64,000 nt of DNA from Escherichia coli (GTDB taxonomy: Bacteria > Pseudomonadota > Gammaproteobacteria > Enterobacterales > Enterobacteriaceae), in the NCBI RefSeq assembly GCF_003334785.1, contig NZ_QOWV01000001.1, one strand, 5' to 3'. Below are positions 9,815-10,708 of the stretch, piece after piece; within the stretch, counting starts at the first letter, position 1; each line of letters begins with the position of its first letter. A program made the translations under genes and the position numbers. Below the pieces are notes generated by a model. It was not told where the DNA came from. It searched no databases and saw only the letters and a program-made list of their open reading frames with translations.

Positions 9815-10708
9815 ATGGAACAGCTGCGTGCCGAATTAAGCCATTTACTGGGCGAAAAACTCAGTCGTATTGAGTGCGTCAATGAAAAAGCGGATACGGC
9901 GTTGTGGGCTTTGTATGACAGCCAGGGAAACCCAATGCCGTTAATGGCAAGAAGCTTTAGTACGCCCGGAAAAGCCCGACAACTGGCATGGAAAACCACC
10001 ATGCTGGCAAGAAGTGGGACTGTCCGTATGCCGACTATTTATGGTGTGATGACGCATGAAGAACACCCCGGCCCCGATGTCCTGCTACTGGAGCGGATGC
10101 GTGGTGTTTCGGTGGAGGCACCAGCCCGAACACCAGAACGCTGGGAACAACTCAAAGACCAAATCGTTGAAGCCTTACTGGCCTGGCACCGTCAGGACAG
10201 TCGCGGTTGCGTCGGCGCGGTCGACAATACTCAGGAAAATTTCTGGCCCTCATGGTACCGGCAACATGTTGAAGTGCTATGGACCACGCTCAATCAGTTC
10301 AATAACACCGGTCTGACGATGCAGGATAAGCGGATCCTGTTTCGCACTCGCGAATGTCTCCCGGCATTATTTGAAGGCTTTAACGACAATTGTGTGCTGA
10401 TTCACGGTAACTTCTGTTTACGCAGCATGTTGAAAGATTCGCGCAGCGATCAGTTACTGGCGATGGTCGGGCCGGGACTAATGCTTTGGGCACCGCGAGA
10501 ATACGAACTGTTCCGACTAATGGATAATTCTCTGGCGGAAGATTTGCTCTGGAGTTACCTGCAACGCGCGCCAGTGGCGGAGTCGTTCATCTGGCGGCGT
10601 TGGTTGTATGTGTTATGGGATGAAGTTGCGCAACTGGTTAATACCGGACGATTTAGTCGGCGCAACTTCGATCTGGCATCAAAATCACTCTTGCCGTGGC
10701 TCGCCTGA
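9815..10708 (+). CDS. ycbJ: putative kinase / phosphotransferase-family protein
   Basis: 297-aa ORF matching remembered YcbJ; 3' end overlaps the convergent elyC 3' end. Confidence 0.8.
   Translation: MEQLRAELSHLLGEKLSRIECVNEKADTALWALYDSQGNPMPLMARSFSTPGKARQLAWKTTMLARSGTVRMPTIYGVMTHEEHPGPDVLLLERMRGVSVEAPARTPERWEQLKDQIVEALLAWHRQDSRGCVGAVDNTQENFWPSWYRQHVEVLWTTLNQFNNTGLTMQDKRILFRTRECLPALFEGFNDNCVLIHGNFCLRSMLKDSRSDQLLAMVGPGLMLWAPREYELFRLMDNSLAEDLLWSYLQRAPVAESFIWRRWLYVLWDEVAQLVNTGRFSRRNFDLASKSLLPWLA

Follow-up and report, generated by a model that had tools for sequence, protein, structure and literature searches.

The three convergent gene pairs ycbJ/elyC, zapC/ycbX and sxy/yccS, which overlap at their 3′ ends in the 64,000-nucleotide stretch of Escherichia coli DNA analysed here (the window), are probably ordinary tail-to-tail overlaps rather than a dedicated regulatory device, and their transcripts probably end mainly by Rho-dependent termination inside the partner gene, with the help of a hairpin for ycbX and perhaps of another one for yccS. 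According to this explanation, the two conserved cores in each pair would abut or lie about 0-35 bp apart, and one or both frames would continue as an unconstrained C-terminal tail up to the first stop codon antisense to the partner. Such an overlap may originate by drift of a stop codon or by read-through; it would persist because the tail costs nothing and because the codons of the partner are under purifying selection, and it should be reversible, for instance by REP insertion as in the Citrobacter freundii group. Since there is no intergenic spacer, each mRNA ends within the partner gene. The departure of the ribosome at the stop codon would leave a naked, mostly C-rich antisense RNA, on which heterogeneous Rho termination could take place within about 100-500 nt; for ycbX, and possibly for yccS, a hairpin encoded in the partner coding sequence may act as a weak terminator, a pause site or a stem protecting the 3′ end.

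Overlaps, their conservation and their frequency

The window corresponds to a K-12-like E. coli chromosome from rpsA to helD. Over positions 9500-12000 it shows 100% identity with K-12 strains, MG1655 among them, and this segment was found in 5,426 out of 5,426 complete E. coli genomes. The overlaps were read from a six-frame ORF listing and from the raw sequence, and were compared with the RefSeq/PGAP annotation of ER1709, where the three overlaps are identical (the PGAP coordinates of zapC in ER1709 are displaced by 37 bp, which is the length difference with the window). The sequence-only reading, which had proposed convergent overlaps of 24, 4 and 38 bp, is borne out by these three sources. 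In all three pairs the genes are bona fide protein-coding genes, facing each other on opposite strands, and their conserved homologues carry Pfam domains. The coordinates are collected in the table, together with those of the RNA features discussed in the next section.

Table. Genes, overlaps, hairpins and published transcript features of the three convergent pairs (positions in the window; MG1655 positions where published)
Feature	Position	Strand	Description	Basis
ycbJ CDS	9815-10708	+	YcbJ family phosphotransferase, 297 aa	ORF and PGAP
Rho region within ycbJ	~10183	+	MG1655 972120; score 5.47, p 5e-12	Adams et al. 2021, PMC7815308
elyC CDS	10685-11464	-	envelope biogenesis factor ElyC, 259 aa	ORF and PGAP
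ycbJ/elyC overlap	10685-10708		24 bp, TCACTCTTGCCGTGGCTCGCCTGA	sequence
zapC CDS	44048-44590	+	180 aa	ORF and PGAP
ycbX-sense Rho region	~44136	-	MG1655 1006040, antisense to zapC; score 4.34, p 7e-8	PMC7815308
ycbX-sense hairpin	44537-44574	-	conserved; 13 bp, 12 nt past ycbX stop, within last 18 zapC codons	
zapC/ycbX overlap	44587-44590		4 bp, CTAA	sequence
ycbX CDS	44587-45696	-	369 aa, MOSC/2Fe-2S protein	ORF and PGAP
zapC-sense 3′ end (Term-seq)	44682	+	MG1655 1006586, 92 nt inside ycbX	Adams et al. 2021, PMC7815308
zapC-sense Rho region	~44743	+	MG1655 1006647, antisense to ycbX; score 7.24, p 1e-24	PMC7815308
sxy (tfoX) CDS	59234-59863	+	209 aa	ORF and PGAP
yccS-sense hairpin	59779-59804	-	putative; 11-bp GC-rich stem, 21 nt past yccS stop, in sxy codons ALPVARRQEL	
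sxy/yccS overlap	59826-59863		38 bp	sequence
yccS CDS	59826-61988	-	720 aa, FUSC-family putative transporter	ORF and PGAP

It could be argued that one member of each pair merely carries a wrong stop, through a sequencing error or over-extension of the ORF, and long overlaps in prokaryotic annotations are indeed described in PMC2478687 as often being mispredictions. Here this is hardly credible: a stop codon, in contrast to a start, leaves no ambiguity, each of the six proteins either has conserved homologues or belongs to a named family, and the identical pairs overlap in independent genomes of many genera. This recurrence in orthologous pairs excludes an annotation error, and a small practical value of the analysis is that the six gene annotations are confirmed.

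For ycbJ/elyC, an ElyC scan with one genome per species gave 80 Enterobacteriaceae loci, in which both frames were extended to their stops. The overlap is present in 77 of these species, being of 24 bp in 68, of 21 bp in 8 and of 36 bp in 1; the genes are 58-117 bp apart in the other three, all from the Citrobacter freundii group, where the spacer contains REP-like palindromes and ElyC is shortened to 252 aa. Within the overlap the codons of the two genes are in exact antisense register, i.e. a TCA (Ser) codon of ycbJ is the TGA stop of elyC and the TGA stop of ycbJ is a TCA (Ser) codon of elyC. The C-terminal KSLLPWL of YcbJ is nearly invariant in 68 species, the last Ala being variable. The conserved core of ElyC has ...WQWLKG as its last residues, right outside the stop codon of ycbJ, and is followed by a tail of 8 residues, the final 7 of which mirror ycbJ codons. 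The fixed ElyC residues of the overlap are those forced by the stop codon (TGA, giving Ser TCA) and by the Trp codon (TGG, giving Pro CCA) of ycbJ, and the variable ones track synonymous third positions of ycbJ. Since both the fixed and the variable residues are dictated by ycbJ codons, the ElyC tail is a passive mirror of ycbJ. The 21-bp variants have TTA or CTA at a ycbJ Leu codon, a synonymous choice that makes a stop on the elyC strand. The tail is also dispensable, as shown by the Citrobacter species in which a REP-like insert is present and ElyC has 252 aa.

The zapC/ycbX overlap consists of two interlocked stop codons, TAA on the plus strand and TAG on the minus strand. It is exactly 4 bp in the five other genera compared (Salmonella, Klebsiella, Enterobacter, Cronobacter and Cedecea). 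A YTAA junction was also seen in 36 further distinct sequences, which are no independent test of the 4-bp overlap because the search pattern demanded YTAA. That metagenome pattern scan was loose, with most of its 120 matches occurring by chance, and from it we kept just those 63-nt matches whose translation resembles ZapC. A length of 4 bp is the modal one for overlaps in prokaryotes, where it arises from stop codons matching on complementary strands (PMC2174442).

At sxy/yccS, the overlap was found in all eight species examined, with lengths of 38, 38, 14, 47, 44, 4, 35 and 20 bp. It is made solely of the C-terminal tails of both proteins, passive extensions that are conserved neither in sequence nor in length; in effect, the conserved cores lie about 34 bp apart and the interval is translated on both strands. 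A small hairpin inside it, CAGGAGTTTCCTG, was considered and set aside: its fold z-scores are -0.6 and +0.1, and it is missing from the other species. Taken over the three pairs, the overlaps are ancient in Enterobacteriaceae.

The window contains seven convergent pairs, three of which overlap, the other four (gloC/aspC, pepN/ssuB, rmf/fabA and matP/ompA) having spacers of 42-221 bp. From the published counts of convergent overlapping pairs in E. coli, 75 (Huvet & Stumpf 2014, PMC4161906) or 58 (PMC2174442), about 0.8-1.0 overlaps are expected per 64 kb, with a Poisson probability of three or more of 0.05-0.09. Three overlaps in one window are at most a mild local excess, noticed post hoc, and nothing remarkable. 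The overlapping pairs catalogued in these two studies likewise consist of two real opposite-strand genes with common 3′ ends, and any terminators they have are necessarily within the partner coding sequence. We see no essential difference from the present pairs: zapC/ycbX has the modal 4-bp form with interlocked stops, and the two longer overlaps are tails reaching the first antisense stop. A model of overlap origin by stop-codon mutation or read-through has already been published (Lillo & Krakauer 2007, PMC2174442). Since both the phenomenon and the three specific pairs are in the literature (PMC2174442, PMC12288877), they were already known; what is new here is only how deeply the three pairs are conserved and that the ElyC tail passively mirrors ycbJ.

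Transcript ends and hairpins within the partner genes

A full-length mRNA covers its own stop codon, so that each transcript is complementary to the 3′ end of its partner over at least 4, 24 or 38 nt, depending on the pair. The statement of the sequence-only reading that transcripts must reach into the opposing gene and create an antisense overlap is, in this sense, logically unavoidable, and a longer extension, of 92 nt, has been published for zapC/ycbX. Its further statement, that there is no room for terminators, holds for intergenic terminators only, and fails otherwise since the signals can sit in the coding sequence of the partner (PMC2174442). It was already pointed out by Lillo & Krakauer (2007, PMC2174442) that Rho-independent terminators of convergent overlaps must fall there, and they listed predicted terminators for 23 of the 116 E. 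coli genes involved in convergent overlaps. Two kinds of evidence bear on this point in the present pairs, namely, at zapC/ycbX, Rho termination of the RNAs from both strands and, past the ycbX and yccS stops, hairpins. Absence of intergenic space does not equal absence of a termination signal. Rho-dependent termination, in particular, does not need a dedicated intergenic space.

The evidence for Rho at zapC/ycbX is provided by the Term-seq study of Adams et al. (2021, PMC7815308), whose MG1655 coordinates were transferred to the window with verified offsets (961937 for the ycbJ Rho region), and in which Rho regions are regions of bicyclomycin (BCM)-sensitive read-through. The zapC-sense Rho region lies about 153 nt beyond the zapC stop, on the far side of the mapped 3′ end, and the ycbX-sense one about 451 nt beyond the ycbX stop. 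A third region, inside ycbJ, corresponds to a Rho-dependent drop in sense signal (in LB) upstream of the ycbJ/elyC overlap (PMC7815308); its resolution is low, with windows of 800 nt, and the upstream window also receives signal from kdsB transcripts, which end at 9707. The supplementary tables of the same study (PMC7815308) contain no 3′-end or Rho entries for elyC, sxy and yccS, and the Yan 2018 and TERMITe supplements gave no match for genes of the three pairs. The behaviour of zapC/ycbX agrees with what is known of Rho termination of untranslated and antisense RNA (Peters et al. 2012; PMC7815308), for which there is BCM-sensitive read-through on both strands of zapC/ycbX and inside ycbJ; the RNA tends to be C-rich past most of the stops studied here, but not past that of ycbJ. 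The C/G ratio over the 200 nt following the stop is 1.43 for elyC, 1.31 for zapC and 1.65 for yccS, then 1.21 for ycbX, 1.13 for sxy (barely C-rich) and 1.00 for ycbJ (not C-rich), the background in the window having a median of 1.00 and a 90th percentile of 1.32. By extension, Rho would also terminate the transcripts at ycbJ/elyC and sxy/yccS.

A scan of the six stops for an adjacent hairpin followed by a U-tract found none. The hairpins past ycbX and yccS are, as expected of intrinsic terminators, stable, GC-rich and located shortly after the stop; the tails that follow, GUCGUUCAUG and GCAGCUUCAU, fail to provide the U-tract looked for at all six stops. Past the stops of ycbJ, elyC and zapC, a conserved hairpin was sought and none was found, and past that of sxy there is a weak consensus fold. 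RNAalifold returned no consensus structure on either strand up to about 140 nt from the junction of ycbJ and elyC, and Rfam has no family at any of the three junctions. Two other candidates were rejected. One was a 10-bp perfect inverted repeat in E. coli ycbJ (10622-10631/10660-10669), envisaged as an elyC terminator, which keeps on average 5.2 of its 10 pairs in 78 species. The other was a hairpin, GCUGAUUUUUUCAGC, which lies shortly before the mapped 3′ end of zapC and is not kept in five other genera.

The hairpin past ycbX is encoded where the sequence of ZapC is variable, and its tail, GUCGUUCAUGAUUUUAAU, is only moderately U-rich. It has a fold z-score of -2.0 and a consensus fold across six genera. 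In 37 distinct enterobacterial sequences, a set chosen by pattern whose members are linked by phylogeny, pairing holds for 87.1% of the cells, as compared with 31-45% in the slid controls; in the same set 8 of the 13 pairs covary, with changes on both sides, and the covariation score is 0.265 versus 0.161 ± 0.012 in shuffles, none of 500 reaching it. In E. coli the fold is more stable in the ycbX-sense RNA than in the zapC-sense RNA (ΔG of -18.2 vs -13.8 kcal/mol), and the proportion of paired cells differs in the same way (87% vs 73%). However, a G-U excess in the same direction exists in 7 out of 8 slid controls, and the preference for the ycbX-sense strand is largely a matter of base composition, because the arms are rich in G+U on that strand. 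At this hairpin, no 3′ end on the minus strand appears in the curated Term-seq list of Adams et al. (2021, PMC7815308), though low expression could mask one. The hairpin is best described as a putative terminator-like, pause or 3′-protecting stem, and it probably serves the ycbX transcript. The hairpin past yccS, which has no U-tract behind its stem, shows a consensus fold from six species; 88.6% of its cells are paired in eight species, with weak covariation, and its stability is -17.2 kcal/mol in the yccS sense vs -16.7 kcal/mol in the sxy sense. Either stem may contribute to the ending or to the protection of the transcript that carries it.

Regulatory readings of the overlaps

Classic excludons have long antisense extensions, and their genes are functionally related or opposed. 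Excludons (Sesto et al. 2013; PMC12288877) are, like the pairs considered here, opposite-strand neighbours with overlapping transcripts, and one may ask whether the overlaps were selected so that collision of polymerases and/or cleavage of the duplex by RNase III would make expression of the two genes mutually exclusive; transcription of yccS could, for example, dampen the competence co-activator Sxy. All three pairs are named among the MG1655 convergent excludons in Table 1 of the ExcludonFinder study (Sanmartin et al. 2025, PMC12288877), which lists 165 of them and found ours from 58 RNA-seq sets. Excludon pairs, taken as a class, are separated by shorter spacers, are more rarely co-expressed in single cells and show a higher conservation of synteny (PMC12288877), and the overlapping state of our pairs is conserved across Enterobacteriaceae. 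Published data also establish that the neighbouring transcripts do overlap in the three pairs (PMC12288877, PMC7815308). However, from the published method we infer that being listed is nearly automatic for genes with overlapping coding sequences, since every transcription unit is built so as to include its CDS; what defines an excludon is that interference or RNase III makes the expression of the two genes reciprocal, whereas the three pairs are classed by transcript overlap. Validation of double-stranded RNA with p19 was not feasible for convergent pairs (PMC12288877). The extensions are stopped by Rho within a few hundred nucleotides (PMC7815308), the sxy/yccS overlap drifts from 4 to 47 bp with unconserved tails, and the ycbJ/elyC overlap is lost in three Citrobacter species. 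The partners, moreover, have no evident functional relation, in which they differ from those of classic excludons, and Rho limits the extension where this has been measured, i.e. at zapC/ycbX (PMC7815308). In 146 of the 165 convergent excludons, the ExcludonFinder study reports terminators from TransTermHP that overlap the transcription unit next to them (PMC12288877). On balance we consider it unlikely that these pairs are functional excludons. If sxy/yccS were one, there would be an extra layer of control on a poorly understood regulator of E. coli competence, for which nothing specific was found here.

Another possibility is that the junctions work as collision-type bidirectional terminators (Ju et al. 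2019; Wang et al.), in which hairpins pause converging polymerases and head-on as well as trailing collisions end the two transcripts at defined sites, with no need for Rho or for a U-tract. This model has been described for E. coli convergent pairs (bioRxiv 10.1101/2022.10.23.513370), and the U-tract-less hairpins, which lie 12 nt beyond the stop of ycbX and 21 nt beyond that of yccS, would suit it: bidirectional terminators (Ju et al. 2019; 10.1101/2022.10.23.513370) likewise involve convergent genes and hairpins near the junction without canonical U-tracts. But they are intergenic and Rho-independent, whereas the hairpins are here in coding sequence and termination at zapC/ycbX is Rho-sensitive, with BCM-sensitive read-through on both strands (PMC7815308). 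The zapC 3′ end, 92 nt beyond the stop, is away from the hairpin (PMC7815308), so the Adams data for zapC/ycbX do not give the Rho-independent, coincident 3′ ends at a shared hairpin that such a terminator implies. At ycbJ/elyC there is no conserved hairpin, and collisions should be rare since the genes are weakly expressed. We therefore regard this mode of termination as quite improbable for the three pairs, though collisions may contribute.

There is a more far-reaching speculation, to which we would give little credit: the overlaps would be selected regulatory junctions, the hairpins embedded in zapC and sxy codons (44537-44574 and 59779-59804) would be dual-coded elements for pausing, termination or 3′ stabilisation, and the partners would be negatively coupled, yccS setting, for instance, a threshold for Sxy. 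Two observations go against a purely passive view. One is that the overlap is exactly 24 bp in 68 of 80 species and that the other two pairs always overlap, which could mean selection for overlap; the other is that the single-cell and synteny statistics of the excludon class (PMC12288877) hint at a function for the class. Our preferred explanation remains that of ordinary tail-to-tail overlaps ending mainly through Rho, and the three overlaps would then have no significant regulatory consequence. A mildly useful product of the analysis is the covarying RNA hairpin in the last 18 zapC codons, an example of a putative dual-coded 3′-end element.

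Loss of the ycbJ/elyC overlap in three Citrobacter genomes

In three genomes of the Citrobacter freundii group (L011, L017 and L025 among the loci compared), a 58-117 bp spacer takes the place of the overlap between the convergent genes ycbJ and elyC. REP-like palindromes (GCCTGATGGCGACGC...GCGTCTTATCAGGCCTAC) lie within this spacer, and ElyC is 252 amino acids long in all three. These spacers constitute a natural experiment, which shows that both the overlap and the ElyC tail are dispensable.

Transcription and an inverted repeat in ycbJ

According to published Term-seq (3′-end mapping) data, the transcript of the upstream gene kdsB ends at window position 9707 (+), 46 nt beyond the kdsB stop codon, and ycbJ must therefore be transcribed only through read-through or from a weak promoter of its own. 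This may be one reason for the absence of a mapped ycbJ 3′ end. The ycbJ coding sequence carries a perfect inverted repeat that gives a strong hairpin in the elyC-sense RNA (z -2.2); it was found in the window and in one further E. coli genome (L004), and was not conserved among the other species examined.

Coordinates of the features discussed
Feature	Sequence	Position	Strand	Remark
ycbJ/elyC spacer	L011	3266-3358		
ycbJ/elyC spacer	L017	3266-3323		
ycbJ/elyC spacer	L025	3266-3382		
10-bp inverted repeat	window	10622-10631 and 10660-10669		GAAGTTGCGC / GCGCAACTTC; ycbJ coding sequence
ES036 (CssrF) sRNA	window	22458-22500	+	Rfam, 53 bits; gloC-aspC spacer
34-bp tandem duplication	window	39405-39472		GCACCAGGCGCAGAGAATACTCGTGTGGCGAACA x2; inside elfC
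PyrD leader	window	42796-42869	+	Rfam, 97.9 bits; upstream of pyrD

Rfam elements and the relation to K-12 strains

The Rfam search of the window returned the PyrD leader and ES036 (CssrF) as its sole matches. Since several single-base indels near ompF, asnS and pncB separate window positions 25000-27250 from E. coli strain ER1709, and since the offset from the coordinates of the K-12 reference MG1655 changes by 1 bp somewhere in the interval from 11.7 to 31.3 kb, the window comes from a source that is K-12-like and identical to neither strain. ER1709 also lacks the elfC duplication, as do the best-matching complete E. coli genomes among the matches listed, which align in two pieces. Because the duplication causes a frame shift, the elfC usher ORF of the window ends at 39491, with 737 amino acids instead of 866.
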